Source: an uncultured Alphaproteobacteria bacterium (GTDB lineage Bacteria; Pseudomonadota; Alphaproteobacteria; Acetobacterales; Acetobacteraceae). Taken from it: a stretch of 64,000 nt of DNA. The notes under the pieces are model-generated. The model was given only the letters and a program-made list of their open reading frames with translations, made no database searches and was not told the origin of the DNA. The position numbers were made by a program, and so were the translations under genes. The DNA lies in assembly GCA_963812475.1 (NCBI GenBank), contig CAWEVI010000007.1, forward strand, positions 2,693 to 66,692. Direction: 5' to 3'. Shown here piece by piece: positions 2,866 to 12,128 of the stretch (positions are counted from its first letter, which is position 1; every line of letters starts with the position of its first letter).

Positions 2866-3058
2866 CTACCGTCCCGCGGTCTGATAGGCCGCCAGGCACT
2901 CTGCACGGCTTCTCCATGCCCATCAGCAGCGGCCCGATAGTGCTTCCGCCACCGCCCAGGCTCGACGTGATATGCGCCGAGTGCAGCCCGGGCATCACCA
3001 GCACGTTGGCATCCGCGGTCAGCCGGCAGAACGGATACAGCGCGCGGATCGACGGCTC
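2866..3058 (-). pseudogene. maeB: Decayed duplicate of the 3-prime end of the NADP-malic enzyme gene
   Basis: The minus strand reads [51 protein letters not shown]. This parallels maeB residues encoded at 6707-6955 and is roughly 90 percent identical by hand alignment. There are net gaps of 9 nt, 1 nt (frame-breaking) and ~43 nt. The tail resumes as ..AYQTAGR-stop at 2866-2868. Confidence 0.8.
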
Positions 3059-3066
3059 GCCTGGAG

Positions 3067-4170
3067 CTAATCGGCCGCCGCCAAATCTTCCTCGACGAAA
3101 CGCATGAGTGCCTCGAGAAGAGCTTCGCGCGGATAAGCGTTCCGGGTCACGAACATCGAGGCGATGACGCTGTGCGTGCGATTGATCGGGACCGCGACGG
3201 CCCAGTGGTCGGCATTGAGATAGCCCACCAGAACGCTGCCTGGCACGACCTGGTCATAGAAGATCATCTGACTGTCGTTGCGCGCGTCGATGCGAGCCAG
3301 CTTGTCATAGCTCCCGGTAAGAACCGAAGAGATGACCTCCGGCCGCGGAAATGTGACGAGCGAATAATAGTGCAACTCGGGGGGAAGCGGGTTCCGCGCA
3401 AGCCACGCCTGGCGCGTCGCGGGCCGTAGGCTTGCCACGCCGCCGCCGTCGCCCGGGCCGCAGTTTGCGCCTGGAAAGTGCCGCAGCAGGTCGGCCTGGT
3501 ACTGCTCGGCGTCATTCGCGAGCGGCGACCCGCCAATCGCGCCGGCGGCGCTGACCACCGCAGCGACGCGGCTTCGTACCTCCGGATACGCGACCACAGC
3601 CTCGAGGATATCAGGGGCACCCTTCGAATAGCCGATGAGCACCAAACGCGGCGCACCCGCGTCGAACGGCATGGCCATGATCGCGTCGCGGATCTGGCGC
3701 GCGTTATTCTCCGAACTCGACAGCGCATCGACCTTCAGCACAAACGCGTCGTATCCGAACTGGCGCAAATGCTGCCCGGCAGTGCCGGGTGGATCCAGCC
3801 ACGGTTCGAAGCATTCGTAGCCAATACCTGGCACCACCGCCGCGACGAGGTGTCGCTTCGATGGACCGAGATCGACTTGTCTGTCAGTGCCGGCGGGCTC
3901 CGTGCCGACGCGGGTCAGTGCTTCCTCGCAGGGGCGGTAATCCGGCAGCGCGCGTCCGTGCGCTTCCAGCACGGCGCAATAGATTTCACGGAAGCGGCCA
4001 CGGTGGTCCTGCACGCCCATCCGGGCTGCAGGCACGAGAGCGAGCGGCGGCGTGTCGGTCGAATACGGCACCAGTGGCCGCGTCGCACATGCGCCGAGCG
4101 TGAGGCACGTCCCCGCGACCAGCGATATGATGGCTACATAAAATCTAGTGCCCGGCATCGCTGCCCGCAT
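3067..4170 (-). CDS. Lipoprotein alpha/beta hydrolase (lipase/esterase-like)
   Basis: Signal peptide with lipobox (ISLVAGTCLTLGAC). Nucleophile elbow G-Y-S-K-G sits in LVLIGYSKGAPD, and there is a downstream ADHWAVAVP His motif. I chose the start at ATG 4170 (AAGGTG lies 8 nt upstream). ATG 4158 is an alternative. The track ORF extends to 4350 without support. Confidence 0.65.
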   Translation of the reverse strand: MRAAMPGTRFYVAIISLVAGTCLTLGACATRPLVPYSTDTPPLALVPAARMGVQDHRGRFREIYCAVLEAHGRALPDYRPCEEALTRVGTEPAGTDRQVDLGPSKRHLVAAVVPGIGYECFEPWLDPPGTAGQHLRQFGYDAFVLKVDALSSSENNARQIRDAIMAMPFDAGAPRLVLIGYSKGAPDILEAVVAYPEVRSRVAAVVSAAGAIGGSPLANDAEQYQADLLRHFPGANCGPGDGGGVASLRPATRQAWLARNPLPPELHYYSLVTFPRPEVISSVLTGSYDKLARIDARNDSQMIFYDQVVPGSVLVGYLNADHWAVAVPINRTHSVIASMFVTRNAYPREALLEALMRFVEEDLAAAD

Positions 4171-5380
4171 TCCCGACACCTTGTCCACGCCGATCGAGGT
4201 ACGGCTCCCAGCGGAGAAATTCCACGTTTTCGAGGCTCTGGGGCCGCGTCGCGAAGAACAGGACGGCGCGCAGACCGTCGGTATAATAGTGCGCGCCGTG
4301 CAGGGTATCCCGAGGCTGTGTATCGGAGGCCTCGCCGACGCCGGTGACAAAACCGATGCGGGTCAGACCACCTGAATACATCATGTCCTGGACCAACAGA
4401 TTTCTTGCTTCATCCACATCTTCGTCCAGGACGATATCGCTGTTGCCCGGGGACGCGAAGCGCCCGCCGACCGGCCGGCCAGCCTGCACAAGATAAACCG
4501 GTTGGTCCTGGAAGCTGACCGGTGCGAGCCACGCGCGTATCCAGTTGGACGGCGCGCCCGCCTGTGCCTGCTTGTGCAGCACGAAATCAGGCGGGCGGCC
4601 GAAAACCTGTTGAACCATGTCCTCCGCTTGCGCGGAGCGCCGATAGTCACGGCGCACCATCGCGCTCCCGATCGCGGCAATGTCACCGACGAACACGGCA
4701 TTCAGCGGATCAGCGTGCATCGTTCCGCCTGCTTCTGCCGCACAGCACGGCAGCTGCTCGATTGCAACGCGGAGTGCGGCGAGGTCCGTGTAGTTCACGG
4801 CATGCGCACCGGAATATTTGAAGAGCGCCGGGTCGTCGCCGGGGGCATCATCGGGTACAGGTAGGAACAGCGTGAAGGGAATCAGCATCTGCCGGCCGAG
4901 CAGATCGACGTTCAGAAGTCTTGTCCGGCGTTCGGGATTGATGAAGAGGATTCCCGCACGTGTTTCCCCCGCGGCGATCGGATTCTTGAACCCGAGCCTG
5001 TCGAAGTGGTCGTCGATCCGTGCATTCGTGTCGCCGCCAAGCAGCGTGTGCAGCGACCACGCGACTTCGAGCGGCGAGTAGTAGTCAGGGTCGGTGCCGG
5101 AGCGCAGCAGCCACAACCGTCGCGCGGTCCGGTTCTCGACCTCTATCCAGACGGGCTGTACTGCGGTCCTGTCGAGTTCGCCGCCGAGCATGCGCCGCGC
5201 GTCCATGGCGCTGAGCACTGCCGCGTTTATGCGTACGTCGCTCCGCATGTCGGTCACGGCGCGGCGGCGCAGCGCGGCGTCGCTGACGTCCTCGGGAGCC
5301 CGCCAGGTCGCGCAACTGACTATGGCCAGTAGCAAGCAGATCCTGAACGCGTCGAGCAGACGAGGCGGCAACGAATTCAT
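4145..5380 (-). CDS. LssY C-terminal-domain lipoprotein (divergent paralog)
   Basis: Lipobox LLLAIVSC. The N-terminal domain shares VQPVWIEVENR with the upstream paralog. Also shared are the LPCC motif, ADPLNAVFVG and the C-terminal YYTDG motif. Its ATG overlaps the upstream stop (ATGA at 5377-5380). Confidence 0.65.
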   Translation of the reverse strand: MNSLPPRLLDAFRICLLLAIVSCATWRAPEDVSDAALRRRAVTDMRSDVRINAAVLSAMDARRMLGGELDRTAVQPVWIEVENRTARRLWLLRSGTDPDYYSPLEVAWSLHTLLGGDTNARIDDHFDRLGFKNPIAAGETRAGILFINPERRTRLLNVDLLGRQMLIPFTLFLPVPDDAPGDDPALFKYSGAHAVNYTDLAALRVAIEQLPCCAAEAGGTMHADPLNAVFVGDIAAIGSAMVRRDYRRSAQAEDMVQQVFGRPPDFVLHKQAQAGAPSNWIRAWLAPVSFQDQPVYLVQAGRPVGGRFASPGNSDIVLDEDVDEARNLLVQDMMYSGGLTRIGFVTGVGEASDTQPRDTLHGAHYYTDGLRAVLFFATRPQSLENVEFLRWEPYLDRRGQGVGNAGSDAGH

Positions 5381-6678
5381 CGCGCTATTCCCGGAGTCGC
5401 CTCCTTGCGCGTCTCGATCGTCCCCCAGTCGAACAGCTCGATCTCGGTGATCGGCGTTGGTCTGCGGTCAAATACCAGCACGACGCGAAATCCGTCGGTA
5501 TAGTACGGATCGGTGGTGAGGTTCTCGCGTGCAGCGTTCGGCGGTGCTGCGCCGACCCCGTTCACGAGCCCCGACTTCGTGAGGTTTTGCGAATAGACCA
5601 TGTCCTCGCTCAGCGCCGCGCGCGCCGTGTCCAAATCGGGATCGATCTTGTGCGTCGTGAACGTCGGTGAGTGGATGGTGAGACGAGAGCCGATATCCCG
5701 GCTGACCTGGCCCACCCAAACCCGCTTGTCATGGTAGCGGATCGGGCTCAGCCAGAGCCGCAGGTGATTGCGCTGGTGGATGTTGTCACGGGCCTTCTGC
5801 AGCGCGAGGTCCTGGGGACGGCCGAACAGGTAGAGATCACTCACCGGCGCATAGGGATAGCGGTCGCGCGACAGCGCAGCGGTCATCATCCGCCAGATCG
5901 AGCCCGTCCACTTCTCCTCGGTTGGATGCCAACCCCGCCGGACCAAAGCAGGGAAGGCATCCTCGAGGCCGCCAACGATCACCAGATTGATCGGATCGGC
6001 GTTCTTCGTGCCATTTTTGTTGGTCGCACAGCATGGCAGGGCCTCCAGCGCCGCGCGAAAGGCATCGTCATCCGTGTAGTTCACGATCTTCTCGGGCGGA
6101 TAGATCTCGCGCTGGAACGCTTCGCTCACCTTATAGTCACCCCGAAAGCCAGGCACGACCGCGAGGATCGAGAATGTCCGCGCGCGCTCGCTTGCGACAA
6201 AGTCGAGTTGCACGAGCTTCACGCCCTCGTCCAGGTTTGTCAGTACGAACCCCAACGTCGTCGATTCCGGCGGGACGGGGTTGTGGAACGCAAGCTGCCG
6301 GAAGCGCCGGTCGATCGCAGCCCGCTGCTGGCTCGAGCTCTCCGGTGACAGGGCTTCGGCTGCTTCCGATGCGGGAAAGAAATTCGGATCCAGACCCGGC
6401 GACAACAGGAAATAGCCCTGCCGGTCACGGTTCTCGACCTCGATCCACACGGGCTGGATTCCCTGCTTCGCGAGCGCCATGCCGTACACCGCCACGCTCT
6501 CGTCGGCGGACAGCACCGCCGTCGACACCCGCAGCGTGCCGTCGGTTCGCGTCACGGCCCTGCTTTTGTAGTCGGGCTCCGTTGTGGGCTGTGCCGACAT
6601 CACAGGCGCACAGCCACCAAAAGTGCCAGCGACGAGAGCGATTGCGAGCGCCCGCATCGCCATGCGGGTCCATTTCAT
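5377..6678 (-). CDS. LssY C-terminal-domain lipoprotein
   Basis: Signal peptide plus lipobox (LVAGTFGGC). As I recall the LssY_C (PF14067) signature, these match it: ADPINLVIVG, RRGW, PVSDLYLFGRPQDLALQK, RNHLRLW and THKIDPDLDTAR. It starts 28 nt after the maeB stop. Confidence 0.7.
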   Translation of the reverse strand: MKWTRMAMRALAIALVAGTFGGCAPVMSAQPTTEPDYKSRAVTRTDGTLRVSTAVLSADESVAVYGMALAKQGIQPVWIEVENRDRQGYFLLSPGLDPNFFPASEAAEALSPESSSQQRAAIDRRFRQLAFHNPVPPESTTLGFVLTNLDEGVKLVQLDFVASERARTFSILAVVPGFRGDYKVSEAFQREIYPPEKIVNYTDDDAFRAALEALPCCATNKNGTKNADPINLVIVGGLEDAFPALVRRGWHPTEEKWTGSIWRMMTAALSRDRYPYAPVSDLYLFGRPQDLALQKARDNIHQRNHLRLWLSPIRYHDKRVWVGQVSRDIGSRLTIHSPTFTTHKIDPDLDTARAALSEDMVYSQNLTKSGLVNGVGAAPPNAARENLTTDPYYTDGFRVVLVFDRRPTPITEIELFDWGTIETRKEATPGIAR

Positions 6679-6706: not shown

Positions 6707-8992
6707 TCAGCGCGCCGCCGCGGTCTGGTACGCCGCCAGGCACGCCAGATCGACGATCTGGCTGACCGAAGCGTCCATCGGCATGATCTGCACGGGCTTC
6801 TCCATGCCCATCAGCAGCGGCCCGATGATGCCACCGCCACCCAACCTGCGCGCCAGGCTCGACGTGATATGGGCCGAGTGCAGCCCCGGCATCACCAGTA
6901 CATTCGCATCCGCGGTCAGCCGGCAGAACGGATACAGCGCGCGAATGGACGGCTCCAACGCGACATCCGGGCTCATCTCGCCGTCATATTCGAAATCGAC
7001 ATTGCGCCGATCGAGGATCGCCACCGCATCGCGCATCGGCGCATTGGCCGCATGCAGCGGGTCGCCGAACGTGGCATGCGACAGCAGCGCGACGCGCGGC
7101 TCGTGGCCGAGATGCCGCGCAGCCCTAGCCGCACCGATCGCGATCTCCGCCGCCTGCTCCGCATTGGGTCGGAAATGCATCAGTGTGTCGGCGATGAAGA
7201 TGGTCCGACCGCGCATGCCCAGCACCAGCGTAAGCCCGAACGCGATGCCCCCCGCGGCCGGCTCGATCGCATGGCTGATGTCGTCCAGACACACCGCGGC
7301 CGAACGGGTGAGCCCGGTCACCATCGCATCGGCATCACCGGTCGCCACCATGCAGGCGGCAAAGACGTTGCGGTCCTGGTTCACCATCCGCTGGCAGTCG
7401 CGATGCAGGAACCCCCGGCGCTGCATACGGCCATACAGGAAGTCGACGTATTTTGCATTGGCGCCGGACAGGCGCGCGTTGTGGATCTCGATGCCCTCCA
7501 CGATGCCGAGACCGAGGCTCGCCATCGTCGCCTGCACCCGATCCTCGCGCCCGATCAGCACCGGTCTGCCATAGCCGGCATTGCGGTAGGCGACGGCGGC
7601 CCGCACCACCTTCTCCTCCTCGCCCTCGGCGAACACCACGCGGCGCGGATCGGTCCGCACGCTCTCCATGATCGCGTCGAGCGCGCCGGCGGTGGAATCG
7701 AGCCGCCCCGACAGGTCTCGCGCATAGCGGCGCAGATCGACCAGCGGCCTGCGCGCGACGCCGCTGTCCATCGCCGCGCGTGCCACCGCCGGCGGCACCC
7801 AGGAGATCAGTCGCGGATCGAACGCGTTCGGGATGATGTACTCCGGCCCGAACGTCAGCCGCCGCCCGGTCGAGGCGGTGTGCACCTCGTCCGGCACATC
7901 CTCGCGCGCAAGCTTGGCCAGCGCCTCGGCCGCGGCGATCTTCATTGCCTCGTTGATCGTGCTGGCGCGCACATCCAGCGCGCCGCGGAAGATGTAGGGA
8001 AAGCCCAGAACGTTGTTGACCTGATTGGGATAGTCGCTGCGGCCAGTCGCTATGATCGCATGTGGGCTGGCTTCCCGCGCCTCTTCCGGCGTGATCTCCG
8101 GGTCGGGGTTCGCCATCGCGAAGATGATCGGCTTGTCCGCCATGCGGCGGACCATCTCCTTGGTCACCGCGCCTTTGACCGACAGGCCGAACACCACATC
8201 GGCGCCGTCCAGCGCATCGGTCAGCGTGCGCGCCCTGGTCGCAGTGGCGTGGGCTGACTTCCACTGGTTCATGCCGTCGGTGCGGCCCTGGTAGATCACA
8301 CCCCGCGTGTCGCACAGCACCACGTGTTCCGGCCGCATGCCCATCGCCTTCAGCAGTTCGGCGCAGGCGATGCCGGCTGAACCGGCGCCGTTCACCACCA
8401 GCTTCGTGTCGCGCAACTCGCGCCCGGTCAGGTGACACGCGTTGATGAGTCCCGCCGCCGCGACGATCGCGGTGCCGTGCTGGTCGTCGTGGAATACCGG
8501 GATGTCCATCAGTTCGCGCAGCCGCTGCTCGATCACGAAGCATTCCGGCGCCTTGATGTCCTCCAGATTAATGCCGCCGAAGCCGGCCAGGAAGCGCACG
8601 GCGTTGACCACGTCATCGACGTTCTCCGAGTCGATCTCCAGGTCGATGCCGTCGATGTCGGCGAACCGCTTGAACAGCGCGATCTTGCCTTCCATCACCG
8701 GCTTCGACGCGATTGCGCCGAGATTGCCGAGGCCCAGCACGGCGGTCCCGTTGGACACCACCGCGACCATGTTGCCCTTGGCCGTGTAGTCGTAGGCGAG
8801 CGAGGCATCGCGCTGGATGTGCAGGCAGGGTTCGGCGACGCCAGGCGAATACGCGAGCGACAGGTCGCGCGCGGTGGTGATCGGCTTGCTGATGCGCGTC
8901 TCGAGCTTGCCCGGACGACCCGACGCGTGCAGCGCCAGGGCTTCTTCGGCCGAGATGCGTGCGGTGCGCGTATCGATGATACCGTCGGCCAT
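6707..8992 (-). CDS. maeB: NADP-dependent malic enzyme (malic enzyme domain fused to a PTA-like domain)
   Basis: Start chosen at [22 protein letters not shown] (ATG 8992), giving 761 aa. Motifs include [29 protein letters not shown] and GAGSAGIA, followed by a phosphate-acetyltransferase-like C-terminal half. The track ORF extension to 9205 is unsupported. Confidence 0.92.
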
Positions 8993-9101
8993 CGTGGTTC
9001 CCCTGGTCGTTTCCCGTCGCGGCTGTATGCCATCATGGAGGGGGACCGCGAAGGAGGAAAGCGGACCGCGCTTCGCAGTGTTGGCGGCCTGAGGTACACC
9101 A

Positions 9102-12100
9102 ATGCCGATGGCCTCAGTCCCCCGATCAGCCGGCGCAACGCCTGCCATGGCGCAATGGTTCGCCGCCAAGGAAGCACACCCGGATGCGCTGGTGTTCTTC
9201 CGCATGGGCGATTTTTACGAGCTGTTCTTCTCGGACGCCGAGGCTGCCGCAGCCGCCCTCGACATCGCGCTGACCCAGAGGGGCGAACATAACGGCAGTC
9301 CGGTGCCGATGTGCGGCGTGCCACAGCATGCGGCCGAGGCCTATCTCGCGCGCCTGATCCGCCGCGGCTTCCGCGTGGCGGTGGCTGAACAGATGGAGGA
9401 CCCCAAGGCGCGCACCAGCAAGGCGCCGATCCGGCGCGAGGTGGTGCGCCTTATCACGCCTGGCACGATCACCGAGGAAGCCCTGCTGGAAGCCGGCCGA
9501 GCCAATTTGTTGCTGGCGCTGGCGCTGGATGGGCGGGTGGGCGTCGGCGCGGCGTGGCTCGATGTTTCCACCGGCCTGTTCGAGACGATGGCGCTTGCCC
9601 AGGCCGATCTTCCCAGCCTGCTCGGCCGGCTTGAACCGGCGGAGATTCTCGCTGCGGCAACCTTGCCTCTTGGCGACTGGGCGGGCAGGCGCGCGCCCGA
9701 TGTCGTGCCATCGCCGCCGTTGGTGGCCCGTCGGCGGCTGGCCGAGGCATTCGGCGTCGCCAGCGTTGACGCGTTCGGCAGCTTCGCCGATGCCGAGGCC
9801 ATCGCTGCGGTTATGGCGGTGGACTATGTCCGTGCCACCCAGGCGGGCACACTGCCGCGCCTGGCGCACCCCGCGCCGCAGGGTGCCGCCGGGCTGCTGT
9901 CGATGGATGCGGCAACGCGCTCCAGTTTGGAAATCCACCGTGCGCGGGACGGCGGAACGTTGCACACGCTGCTCGGCACCGTGCAGCGAACGCTCAGCCC
10001 TGCGGGCGCGCGTATGCTGGCGGGCTGGCTGTCCGCGCCGCTCACCGACACCCCGGCGATTGCGGCACGCCAGGATGCATGGTCCTGGCTGTTGGCCGAG
10101 CACGCCGCCGCCGAGCGGCTGCGGGCTGCTATGCGGTCCGCGCCTGACATCGCTCGCGCTCTGGCACGGCTGTCGGTCAATCGCGGCGGACCGCGCGACC
10201 TCGCTGCGCTGCGCCACGGGCTGGCGGCCGCGCAGGCTGCGGCGATGGCGCTCAGTGCGTCCGGCGCCCACCTGCACCCACACGCACAGCCACCCGCCGC
10301 CACCGCACAGTCATGCGCGCCCAACGCACACACACAGTCACACGCCCCGCACGCACACGCCCCGTACGCACAGTCCCGCGCGCCCAGCGCGGACGCACAG
10401 TCACACGCCCCGCACGCACACGCGCAGTCACACGTCCCGCACTCGAACGTCATGGCCGGGCCTGACCCGGCCATCCCCACGACCGCGAATGCCGCAACAG
10501 ATGGCCGGGTCAAGCCCGGCCATGACGAAGCATGTGGGCCCGGCGATGACGGAGCACGTGGGCCCGGCCACGACGGAGCGGTTGCGCCAGGCCATGACGG
10601 AGCACTTGGGCCAAGGCCCGATGGAGTGCTTGCGGGAGAATTGTCCGTCGCGCTGCCTCCAGCGCTGCGGACCGCGTCCACCGCCCTCCACGTCGATCCG
10701 TCACTGGAGCACCGCCTGGCCGACGCGCTGGCCGACCCGGCGCCGCATCGCCTGGACGACGGCAACGCCATCCGGGCCGGTTTCGACGCCGAACTCGACG
10801 CCGAACGCGCCCTGCGCGACGATAGCCGACGAGTGCTGGCAACGCTGCAACTCGACTACGCGCAGCGCTACGGCGTGGCCAGCCTGAAGATCCGCCACCA
10901 CGCCCAACTCGGCTACGTCATCGAAGCGCCTGCCGCCGTGGTGGAAAAGCTGCGCGAATTTCCCGAACTCACATTGCGCCAGGGCATGGCCAACGGCGCG
11001 CGCTTCACCACACCGGAACTCTCGGACCTCGACCGCCGCATCGCTGAGGCCGGTGAACGTGCCGCGGCACGCGAGCGCGCGGTGTTCGCCCAACTGGTGC
11101 AGGAGGCCCTGGCCCATGCCGATGCGCTCGCCGCCTGCGCCGATGCGCTGGCCTTCCTCGACGCCGTGCAGTCCGCCGCGAAGCTGGCCGAGTCCGGCAC
11201 GTGGTGCCGCCCCCAGGTAACCGATAACGACGAGTTCCTGGTGAAATCCGGCCGCCACCCGGTCGTGGAAGCGGCGCTGGCAGGACACGCGGCCTTCGTG
11301 CCCAATGACTGCGACCTGTCCGCGGAGCAGCGCGTCCTGTTGCTCACCGGCCCCAACATGGCGGGCAAATCGACCTTCCTCCGGCAGAACGCGCTGATCG
11401 TCGTGCTCGCCCAGGCCGGGCTGCCGGTTCCCGCGGAAGCCGCGTCCATCGGCGTGGTGGACCGGCTGTTCTCCCGCGTTGGCGCGGCGGACGATCTGGC
11501 GCGCGGCCGTTCCACCTTCATGGTGGAGATGACCGAGACCGCCGCGATCCTGCATCAGGCCGGCCCGCGCTCGCTGGTCGTGGTGGACGAGATCGGCCGC
11601 GGCACCGCGACGCTGGACGGCCTGGCGATCGCCTGGGCGGTGCTCGAGGCGCTGCACTCGGCAATCCGCTGCCGCACCATCTTCGCCACACACTTCCATG
11701 AGCTTGCCGAACTCGCGGACCGGTTGCCGCGTCTCAAGCCGCACACGATGCGGGTGAAGGAATGGAAGGGTACAGTGGTGTTCCTGCACGAAGTGGCCAC
11801 CGGTGCGGCGGGGCGCTCCTGGGGCGTGCACGTCGCGGAACTGGCCGGGGTGCCGGCGCCGGTGGTGCGACGGGCCGCGTCCTTGCTCGCGTCCTTGGAA
11901 AAGCACGGGGGCCCGCTGGGAGCGGCAGGCTCGCCGCTCACGGCATTGCCGCTCTTCGCCGCCGCGCCTTCCGCGGGGCAGGCAGAAGCCCCGTCTTCAC
12001 CGGATCCCGATCCACTCACCGAGGCGATCGCCGCCCTGGAACCGGATCGGCTCACCCCGCGCGACGCGCTGGACGCATTGTATCGCCTGAAAGCAATGTT

Positions 12101-12128
12101 GGCAGTTCCCGACGCGGCGGCGAACTAG
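9102..12128 (+). CDS. mutS: DNA mismatch repair protein MutS carrying a ~123-aa in-frame repeat insertion
   Basis: N-terminal TPAMAQWFAAKEAHPDALVFFRMGDFYELFFSDA, Walker A GPNMAGKST, and DEIGRGT. It is 1008 aa, against ~880-915 aa as I recall for relatives. It is divergent from maeB. Confidence 0.92.
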   Translation: MPMASVPRSAGATPAMAQWFAAKEAHPDALVFFRMGDFYELFFSDAEAAAAALDIALTQRGEHNGSPVPMCGVPQHAAEAYLARLIRRGFRVAVAEQMEDPKARTSKAPIRREVVRLITPGTITEEALLEAGRANLLLALALDGRVGVGAAWLDVSTGLFETMALAQADLPSLLGRLEPAEILAAATLPLGDWAGRRAPDVVPSPPLVARRRLAEAFGVASVDAFGSFADAEAIAAVMAVDYVRATQAGTLPRLAHPAPQGAAGLLSMDAATRSSLEIHRARDGGTLHTLLGTVQRTLSPAGARMLAGWLSAPLTDTPAIAARQDAWSWLLAEHAAAERLRAAMRSAPDIARALARLSVNRGGPRDLAALRHGLAAAQAAAMALSASGAHLHPHAQPPAATAQSCAPNAHTQSHAPHAHAPYAQSRAPSADAQSHAPHAHAQSHVPHSNVMAGPDPAIPTTANAATDGRVKPGHDEACGPGDDGARGPGHDGAVAPGHDGALGPRPDGVLAGELSVALPPALRTASTALHVDPSLEHRLADALADPAPHRLDDGNAIRAGFDAELDAERALRDDSRRVLATLQLDYAQRYGVASLKIRHHAQLGYVIEAPAAVVEKLREFPELTLRQGMANGARFTTPELSDLDRRIAEAGERAAARERAVFAQLVQEALAHADALAACADALAFLDAVQSAAKLAESGTWCRPQVTDNDEFLVKSGRHPVVEAALAGHAAFVPNDCDLSAEQRVLLLTGPNMAGKSTFLRQNALIVVLAQAGLPVPAEAASIGVVDRLFSRVGAADDLARGRSTFMVEMTETAAILHQAGPRSLVVVDEIGRGTATLDGLAIAWAVLEALHSAIRCRTIFATHFHELAELADRLPRLKPHTMRVKEWKGTVVFLHEVATGAAGRSWGVHVAELAGVPAPVVRRAASLLASLEKHGGPLGAAGSPLTALPLFAAAPSAGQAEAPSSPDPDPLTEAIAALEPDRLTPRDALDALYRLKAMLAVPDAAAN
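10263..10632 (+). repeat. Composite repeat block inside mutS (His/Ala/Pro-coding direct repeats, two REP palindromes, 24-nt tandem repeats)
   Basis: An exact 28-nt direct repeat CACAGTCACACGCCCCGCACGCACACGC occurs at 10333-10360 and 10396-10423, a 63-nt period. Palindromes ATGGCCGGG-N5-CCCGGCCAT lie at 10452-10474 and 10501-10523. Five progressively degenerate 24-nt units span 10513-10632. All are in frame. Confidence 0.85.

Follow-up and report, generated by a model that had tools for sequence, protein, structure and literature searches.

A widespread operon of three predicted lipoproteins joins an MGS0156-family esterase to an intact and a degenerate LssY_C paralog

The locus and its lipoprotein signals

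Three consecutive genes, here called P1, P2, and P3, lie on the minus strand of a 64,000-nucleotide (nt) stretch of DNA from an uncultured member of the Acetobacteraceae (contig CAWEVI010000007.1; the whole stretch is referred to as the window). They make up one operon with translational coupling, and all of its products are predicted lipoproteins: two paralogs with an LssY_C domain and a serine alpha/beta hydrolase. The locus is an ordinary ortholog of a widespread operon already annotated as hypothetical in databases; the novelty lies in recognizing the module and its internal logic, that of a predicted lipoprotein lipase with an undescribed, putatively heterodimeric accessory. The genes are as follows.

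5377 to 6678, minus strand: P1, a 433-residue predicted lipoprotein (Cys23) with an N-terminal beta-sandwich and an intact LssY_C domain (open reading frame [ORF] call, Pfam, AlphaFold2 model); its motifs HQRNHLRLW and THKIDPD lie at 5778-5752 and 5655-5635, minus strand
4145 to 5380, minus strand: P2, a 411-residue predicted lipoprotein (Cys23), paralog of P1 with a degenerate LssY_C domain (ORF call, alignment, Pfam)
3067 to 4170, minus strand: P3, a 367-residue predicted lipoprotein (Cys28), serine esterase/lipase of the MGS0156 family (profile match to PDB 5D8M); predicted triad S182 (3627-3625, in GYSKG), D299 (3276-3274), and H322 (3207-3205), with lid cysteines C120 and C237

Together the three ORFs fill positions 6678 to 3067. 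The stop of P1 and the start of P2 have an ATGA at 5380-5377 in common. P2 ends with a stop at 4147-4145, within P3, whose frame is open from 4350 and offers ATG candidates at 4170 and 4158, for an overlap of 26 or 14 nt; comparison of ortholog N-termini favors the ATG at 4170. An original prediction, made from the letters of the sequence, had described three minus-strand genes coupled by overlaps of just this kind, and both overlaps are there. So are the motifs that it had listed for the two paralogs, (I/V)QPVWIEVENR, LPCCA, ADP(I/L)N, D.D.AR, (E/Q)DM.YS, and YYTDG; as it had also stated, RNHLRLW is confined to P1 and GYSKG is found in P3.

The N-termini of P1 (MKWTRMAMRALAIALVAGTFGGC), P2 (MNSLPPRLLDAFRICLLLAIVSC), and P3 (MRAAMPGTRFYVAIISLVAGTCLTLGAC) open alike, with a basic n-region, then a hydrophobic stretch, then a cysteine; the lipobox endings are LVAGTFGGC (Cys23), LLLAIVSC (Cys23), and CLTLGAC (Cys28), respectively. 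A signal peptide and lipobox had been predicted for all three proteins. P1 and P3 pass the PROSITE PS51257-type lipobox rule, and for these the prediction stands as made; in P2 a single residue, the Arg at -10, breaks it. In the family alignments the lipobox cysteine is invariant or nearly so for each of the three (invariant for P2), a lipobox is present in 83 to 91% of homologs (120 per family), and 100 of 120 P2 orthologs pass the rule. The residue at +2 after this cysteine is mostly Ala and never Asp in the same homologs. In Escherichia coli, a lipoprotein without Asp at +2 is sorted to the outer membrane. Because +2 Asp is lacking, and going by the E. coli rule, P1, P2, and P3 are probably anchored in the outer membrane.

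The esterase and the two LssY_C proteins

A profile built from P3 homologs matched the MGS0156 chain in PDB entry 5D8M with an E value of 2.6e-80, aligning P3 residues 27 to 364 with chain residues 4 to 340; pairwise identity between the two proteins is 43%. With the offset between chain and published numbering derived from this alignment, S182 (GYSKG), D299 (NDSQ), and H322 (NADHW) of P3 align with Ser232, Asp350, and His373 of MGS0156. These three residues and C120/C237 are all invariant in 36 P3 homologs and in the comparison with MGS0156. The likeness covers the whole of mature P3, with the same triad positions, the lid cysteine pair, and the mature N-terminal cysteine; the nucleophile elbow differs, being THSKG in MGS0156 and GYSKG in P3. 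By homology, P3 adds a member to the MGS0156 esterase family, with a predicted activity. The metagenomic carboxyl esterase MGS0156 (PDB 5D8M) was reportedly described in Popovic 2017 and Hajighasemi 2018. Its crystallized chain begins with "GC," and for this reason MGS0156 itself is probably a lipoprotein in its native host. It was one of 3 olive oil-positive enzymes among 80 and hydrolyzed poly(lactic acid) (PLA) and polycaprolactone (PCL) (PMC5341072); in its structure, an alpha/beta hydrolase fold bears a hydrophobic lid that a disulfide stabilizes, and the triad is Ser232/Asp350/His373 (PMC11236915). The nucleophile elbow that had been proposed at GYSKG is thus borne out by the alignment of S182 with Ser232. 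The description of the operon as uncharacterized no longer fits its hydrolase, which falls in a family with a structure (5D8M), a mapped triad, and measured lipase/polyesterase activity.

Other assignments for P3 were considered and set aside. A cutinase match (PF01083) reached 14 bits (E = 0.049), under the gathering cutoff of 25.9 bits. The dienelactone hydrolase label that some sources attach to P3 homologs is without model support, with no Pfam or NCBIfam match above threshold, and the precomputed Pfam entry is blank ("-") for all 120 listed P3 homologs. An arrangement of lipase effector and immunity protein, as in type VI secretion, was rejected since the esterase bears its own lipoprotein signal peptide. 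An AlphaFold2 model of P3 was poor (predicted local distance difference test [pLDDT] score of 65) and was set aside in favor of the sequence match to 5D8M.

Pairwise alignment of P1 with P2 gives 33% identity over 398 residues (E = 6e-68). The Pfam LssY_C model (PF14067) matches P1 at residues 219 to 396 with 179.5 bits (E = 6.9e-53) and P2, partially, at residues 259 to 369 with 42.7 bits (E = 6.2e-11). Both are above the gathering cutoff of 25 bits, in agreement with the domain that had been recognized by eye. The N-terminal halves of the two proteins are without any Pfam or NCBIfam match, and scanning 69 family members against Pfam at permissive settings brought up no second family in either of the two domains. 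No PAP2 domain was found in P1 or P2 (Pfam) or in the nine longest relatives scanned, the wider family being unsurveyed. An exhaustive HMMER search with P1 returned 2,867 representative clusters (50% identity) at E ≤ 1e-3 and 290 at E ≤ 1e-30, and the top relatives are mostly two-domain lipoproteins of 410 to 450 residues.

An AlphaFold2 model of P1, for which the input was a 55-sequence alignment spanning both paralog families (pLDDT 78; predicted template-modeling score [pTM] 0.77), has a beta-sandwich at about residues 42 to 175 and an alpha/beta domain at 199 to 403. The Foldseek matches to the N-terminal domain were the adaptin ear, PCuAC, the PmoB cupredoxin, and the FixG-related 2R39, and two-domain adaptin appendages matched the whole model with poor template-modeling (TM) scores of 0.19 to 0.29. 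None of these matches is taken here as homology; the PCuAC copper-site residues are absent from P1. A protein encoded on a Paraburkholderia phenoliruptrix plasmid (NC_018696.1, 63503-63997, hit H37) matches P1 residues 10 to 176 only, so that the N-terminal beta-sandwich domain may exist on its own.

LssY_C is named after LssY of the Legionella lssXYZABD locus. A role as a type I secretion accessory, as in the label "LssY-like putative T1SS component," finds no support in linkage. Type I secretion genes (ABC transporter, membrane-fusion protein, TolC-like protein) are not adjacent to the trio in the window, in Cupriavidus metallidurans, or in Paraburkholderia terrae; one cluster of ORFs, TolC-like as judged by reading of the sequence, is represented at six loci at a median distance of about 2.3 kb. 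Papers found under LssY, LssY_C, PF14067, or LssY with PAP2 give descriptions of the Legionella locus without a function. The statement that LssY_C has no demonstrated function therefore holds for the literature that we found, which likewise contained no description of the trio, of the N-terminal domain, or of the pairing of intact and degenerate copies to which we now turn.

Among 102 diverse two-domain representatives, about 32 to 56% identical to P1, six LssY_C positions are near-invariant: R297, R303, H305, D328, T342, and H343. The full conserved or near-invariant set in the domain comprises these and D228, P229, N231, R287, D290, R307, W309, R327, D346, D350, R353, D395, G396, and R398. 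In the N-terminal domain Q75, W78, N83, D97, and E105 are conserved, and a PCC motif at 215 to 217 is present in about 80% of the representatives. P2 has kept the N-domain set and the PCC motif and has lost R297, R303, H305, D328, T342, and H343, reading ASWPDI in place of RRHDTH. The core domain residues R303, H305, R307, W309, T342, H343, D350, and R353 are all found in P1; of these, P2 has lost R303, H305, T342, and H343. The original prediction had treated the two paralogs as equivalent, and here it has to be corrected: P1 keeps the Arg/His/Asp set, P2 has lost it, and this is a rule across loci. When the six positions were read from a hidden Markov model (HMM) alignment for every LssY_C ORF of all fetched loci, exactly one RRHDTH copy and one degenerate copy were found at 86 of 98 loci, and two further loci (L131 and L154) encode fused intact-plus-degenerate proteins.

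The residues at the six positions of the degenerate copies vary by lineage (ASWPDI, RESRTL, SATRTL, RTEDEY, RREFGA, RPVPDE, and others), implying that constraint has been relaxed at exactly the six key positions. P2 also evolves faster, with a mean ortholog identity of 58% compared to 69% for P1. Natural fusions of the two without an internal signal peptide are found in P0361, P0362, and P0366 and at L131 (904-3411) and L154 (4581-7073). The order is intact then degenerate in P0361, and degenerate then intact in P0362 and P0366; fusion in both orders implies independent events and argues that the two are a physical pair. The P1-P2 pairing looks like an enzyme/pseudoenzyme heterodimer, to judge by the sequences. 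As in such systems, one paralog keeps the site, and the other varies there, evolves faster, and is sometimes fused to its partner; it differs from them in that catalysis by the intact copy is a prediction, as is the "pseudoenzyme" status of P2.

Single-domain, transmembrane-anchored LssY_C proteins of Rhizobium, Sinorhizobium, and Nostoc keep the His/Arg/Asp core, which argues that this core is the domain's own functional site rather than a property of the partnership with an esterase. The PCC motif is absent from the same proteins, so that vicinal cysteines mark out the two-domain lipoproteins. P1 and P2 have the DPxN, GRxQD, R-x-H-x-R-x-W, TH, and TDG motifs in common with single-domain members of the Pfam family; they differ in being lipoproteins that have an additional beta-sandwich at the N terminus and a PCC motif, and in forming an intact/degenerate pair. 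A Cys-His-Asp hydrolase built on the PCC motif was rejected, given that single-domain LssY_C proteins keep the His without the Cys and P2 keeps the Cys without the His.

Distribution of the trio and its insertion in the window

To follow the trio beyond the window, one genome for each of 185,579 species was scanned with a pattern, giving 518 candidate stretches that encode a P1 relative, of which the best 80 were analyzed. These come from alpha-, beta-, and gammaproteobacteria: Acetobacteraceae-like metagenome-assembled genomes (MAGs) and Azospirillum; Caballeronia, Paraburkholderia, Burkholderia, Cupriavidus, and Dechloromonas; and the Pseudomonas fluorescens group, Lysobacter, and a Thiotrichales MAG. 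By tblastn, the P1-P2-P3 order and strand are retained at nearly all of the best 80 loci, and 66 have high-scoring segment pairs of at least 300 residues for all three genes. The remainder are mostly cut at contig ends or have fragmented matches; one (L010) has P1 alone. Loss of the triad in other genomes had been named as a finding that would speak against an operon of this kind, and the triad is instead strongly conserved. Mean identities to the window proteins are 69% for P1, 58% for P2, and 75% for P3, which seem high for a comparison across proteobacterial classes.

Flanking genes are conserved within lineages and not across them. In Burkholderiaceae (L085, on P. terrae plasmid pPT365, and loci among L009 to L078) the flanks often have an envelope theme, the genes there coding for small lipoproteins, a YSC84-related lipoprotein, a transporter of the AI-2E type, and a DUF2092 protein. 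We take this DUF2092 protein to be LolA-like. The trio is also carried on chromids and plasmids, among them the C. metallidurans CH34 megaplasmid and pPT365 of P. terrae.

The association was also examined from the side of the esterase, by scanning metagenome contigs with MGS0156 as the lead and searching the 80 returned loci for P1 and P2. The closest MGS0156 relatives (54 to 93% identity; L086 to L100) have no LssY_C gene nearby, even where 8 kb of flank is available on each side; at L086 the neighbors of the esterase are an M24 peptidase (of the methionine aminopeptidase-type family) and sensor kinases. Esterases nearer to P3 (at least about 52% identity) adjoin an LssY_C pair at many of the loci with enough flank. 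MGS0156 genes of the first group stand alone, then, and the subclade of P3 does not; the LssY_C pair is an add-on of one subclade rather than a requirement of the esterase fold. Gene order in the metagenomic loci is variable: P3-P1-P2 (L120, L133, L138, L139, and L154), divergent (L131 and L164), or P2-like-P1-like-P3 (L161 and L165). An association that outlives changes in gene order argues for functional coupling rather than inherited synteny. A tandem of MGS0156-like esterase genes (6773-7816 and 7971-9011) without an LssY_C neighbor was seen at L148.

In the window, the trio is bracketed by two copies of the 3' end of the malic enzyme gene maeB.

6707 to 6955, minus strand: intact 3' end of maeB, the upstream copy of the direct repeat bracketing the cassette
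2874 to 3058, minus strand: second, decayed copy of the maeB 3' end, at the downstream edge of the cassette (direct repeats D1, D2, and D5 and alignment)

The intact gene (6707-9205) has its stop 28 nt upstream of the P1 start, and a decayed copy of its last ~240 nt follows directly past the P3 stop; 2874-3058 and 6718-6955 are 91 to 93% identical, with two deletions. In L001, a close relative at 94% nucleotide identity, maeB and the trio are arranged alike and the surviving piece of the duplicate is a different, more upstream one, which implies that the ancestral duplicated fragment was at least ~400 nt long. The duplication is the footprint expected from single-crossover integration of a segment carrying a maeB fragment and supports horizontal acquisition. 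It is this bracketing duplication that supports a foreign origin; base composition gives no support. The dip in GC content that had been estimated by hand (~55 to 60 versus ~70 percent) was not seen on full count, the trio region standing at 0.640, the whole window at 0.648, and neighboring genes at 0.67 to 0.71; in GC the region ranks 91st of 302 intervals of equal size. No integrase or transposase accompanies the footprint.

Some other features of the window were noted in passing. A 40-nt inverted repeat (2483-2522/2764-2803; 93% complementary, arms 241 nt apart, a single occurrence in the window) sits in the spacer between the maeB remnant and an acyl-CoA-dehydrogenase-like gene, and a terminator-like hairpin overlaps one of its arms. 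The spacer from P3 to the next gene, this repeat included, had no Rfam match. The MutS ORF (9102-12128) has a low-complexity insertion of ~100 residues, rich in His, Ala, Pro, and Gln (HAPHAHAPYAQSRAPSADAQSHAPHAHAQSH), at ~10250 to 10700, coinciding with a local GC maximum of 0.74. An ORF at 317-982 on the plus strand has a Pro-rich N terminus and a C-terminal repeat pattern that may be bactofilin-like.

A proposed envelope module and its alternatives

In the reading that we favor, the trio is a self-contained, horizontally spread envelope module in which the P3 esterase and a P1-P2 LssY_C heterodimer act on an amphipathic, ester-linked substrate, and we would put the probability of this at roughly 45%. 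In such a module P3 would be the catalytic acyl-ester hydrolase, a lidded Ser-Asp-His alpha/beta hydrolase from a family whose studied member hydrolyzes polyesters of hydroxy acids as well as long-chain glycerides. P1 and P2 would form an obligate heterodimer of two-domain LssY_C proteins. The putative site of P1 would comprise R287, D290, R297, R303, H305, R307, D328, T342, H343, D350, and R353, an invariant His/Arg/Asp constellation that fits a site for binding or hydrolyzing a negatively charged head group, probably a phosphorylated one; P2, with the site lost, may be a noncatalytic scaffold or a regulatory partner. One can envision a division of labor, with the LssY_C pair recognizing or processing the polar part of the substrate and the esterase removing its acyl chains. 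Candidate substrates would be a membrane phospholipid or glycolipid, an acyloxyacyl structure of the lipid A type, or an exogenous lipid or polyester. The broader reading of the original prediction, remodeling of envelope lipids or lipoproteins, is reasonable but unproven. A bolder version, that LssY_C is an unrecognized periplasmic hydrolase fold, with a pair of invariant His and an Arg/Asp ring, acting on the phosphorylated head group of a lipid or glycolipid, as an enzyme/pseudoenzyme heterodimer coupled to a lidded lipase, seems unlikely to us.

Several results weigh against the envelope module. Foldseek matches of the P1 model to the PDB were weak only, generic immunoglobulin-like or cupredoxin-like, and in the N-terminal domain; for LssY_C there was no convincing match among the 50 PDB matches listed, and profiles of the P1 family (A2 and A5) gave only noise (E ~1) against PDB sequences. 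Our searches of the literature and the PDB found no experiment or structure tying LssY_C to an activity. Recombinant MGS0156 is active by itself, and LssY_C genes are missing from the surroundings of its closest relatives; catalysis by this fold therefore does not require the pair. Finally, the signal peptide of the window's own P2 is marginal.

The same independence of MGS0156 bears on a different proposal, that P1 and P2 are nonenzymatic accessory factors of the lipase, such as a foldase, an anchor, a surface-exposure helper, or a membrane-protecting inhibitor, with the polar residues forming a protein- or ligand-binding surface. In its favor, the pair keeps strictly to one esterase subclade despite changes in order, and one partner is degenerate, faster evolving, and at times naturally fused to the other; the best whole-chain fold matches, too, are adaptin appendages, which are protein interaction modules, though as noted the TM-scores are poor (0.19 to 0.29). 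However, the Arg/His/Asp constellation is kept in LssY_C proteins with no esterase nearby and is near-invariant in 102 divergent representatives, as one would sooner expect of an active or ligand site than of an interface with one particular partner. Neither paralog has a Pfam match to lipase chaperone families, and MGS0156 folds and is active without a partner (PMC11236915). We regard purely accessory roles as doubtful. In Pseudomonas and Burkholderia, the lipase gene lipA is cotranscribed with the gene for a dedicated envelope-anchored partner, the foldase Lif. The trio resembles this system in joining a lipase gene to partners that are predicted to be envelope anchored, in the same bacterial groups. 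It differs in having no sequence or Pfam relation to Lif, in having two partners, both encoded ahead of the lipase, in the lipoprotein nature of all three products, and in a partner domain that is widespread without lipases.

Alternatively, the trio might serve nutrition and not homeostasis, as a system of the cell surface acting on exogenous polyesters or lipids (polyhydroxyalkanoate oligomers, cutin, suberin, or biosurfactant esters), with the beta-sandwiches as substrate-binding modules. The hydrolysis of PLA, PCL, and olive oil by MGS0156 is in line with this, as are the soil and rhizosphere hosts (Paraburkholderia, Caballeronia, Cupriavidus, the P. fluorescens group, Azospirillum, and Lysobacter), the mobile, accessory nature of the cassette, and the invariance of Q75, W78, N83, D97, and E105 of the N-terminal domain in both paralogs. 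To us these five look like the residue set of a binding module. Yet in the flanks that were analyzed no gene for uptake or catabolism goes consistently with the triad, the Burkholderiaceae neighbors are small envelope lipoproteins, YSC84, and DUF2092 rather than catabolic genes, and the surface exposure that the proposal needs is unproven for these lipoproteins; it strikes us as quite unlikely. That the three genes are functionally unrelated neighbors kept together by inherited synteny is effectively refuted: start and stop codons overlap, the association spans three proteobacterial classes with flanks that are not conserved, and it outlasts rearranged gene orders.

Whichever role the LssY_C pair has, the trio links a widespread domain without an assigned function to an enzyme of known fold and chemistry. 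It singles out residues for mutation, H305 and H343 together with the ring of Arg and Asp. Genetically tractable hosts carry the trio, among them C. metallidurans CH34, Paraburkholderia, and the P. fluorescens group. Polyesterases of the MGS0156 family are studied for plastic recycling, and their predicted lipoprotein nature, together with the existence of a partnered subclade, bears on their natural substrate and on their engineering. If LssY_C did prove to be a hydrolase fold, the trio would be a new three-component machine that deacylates and dephosphorylates a lipid of the outer membrane (lipid A or a phospholipid, for example), and a function would at last be at hand for LssY_C, including its reported PAP2-fused forms. 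The trio overturns nothing; its value is as a well-defined way into a domain that has no assigned function.

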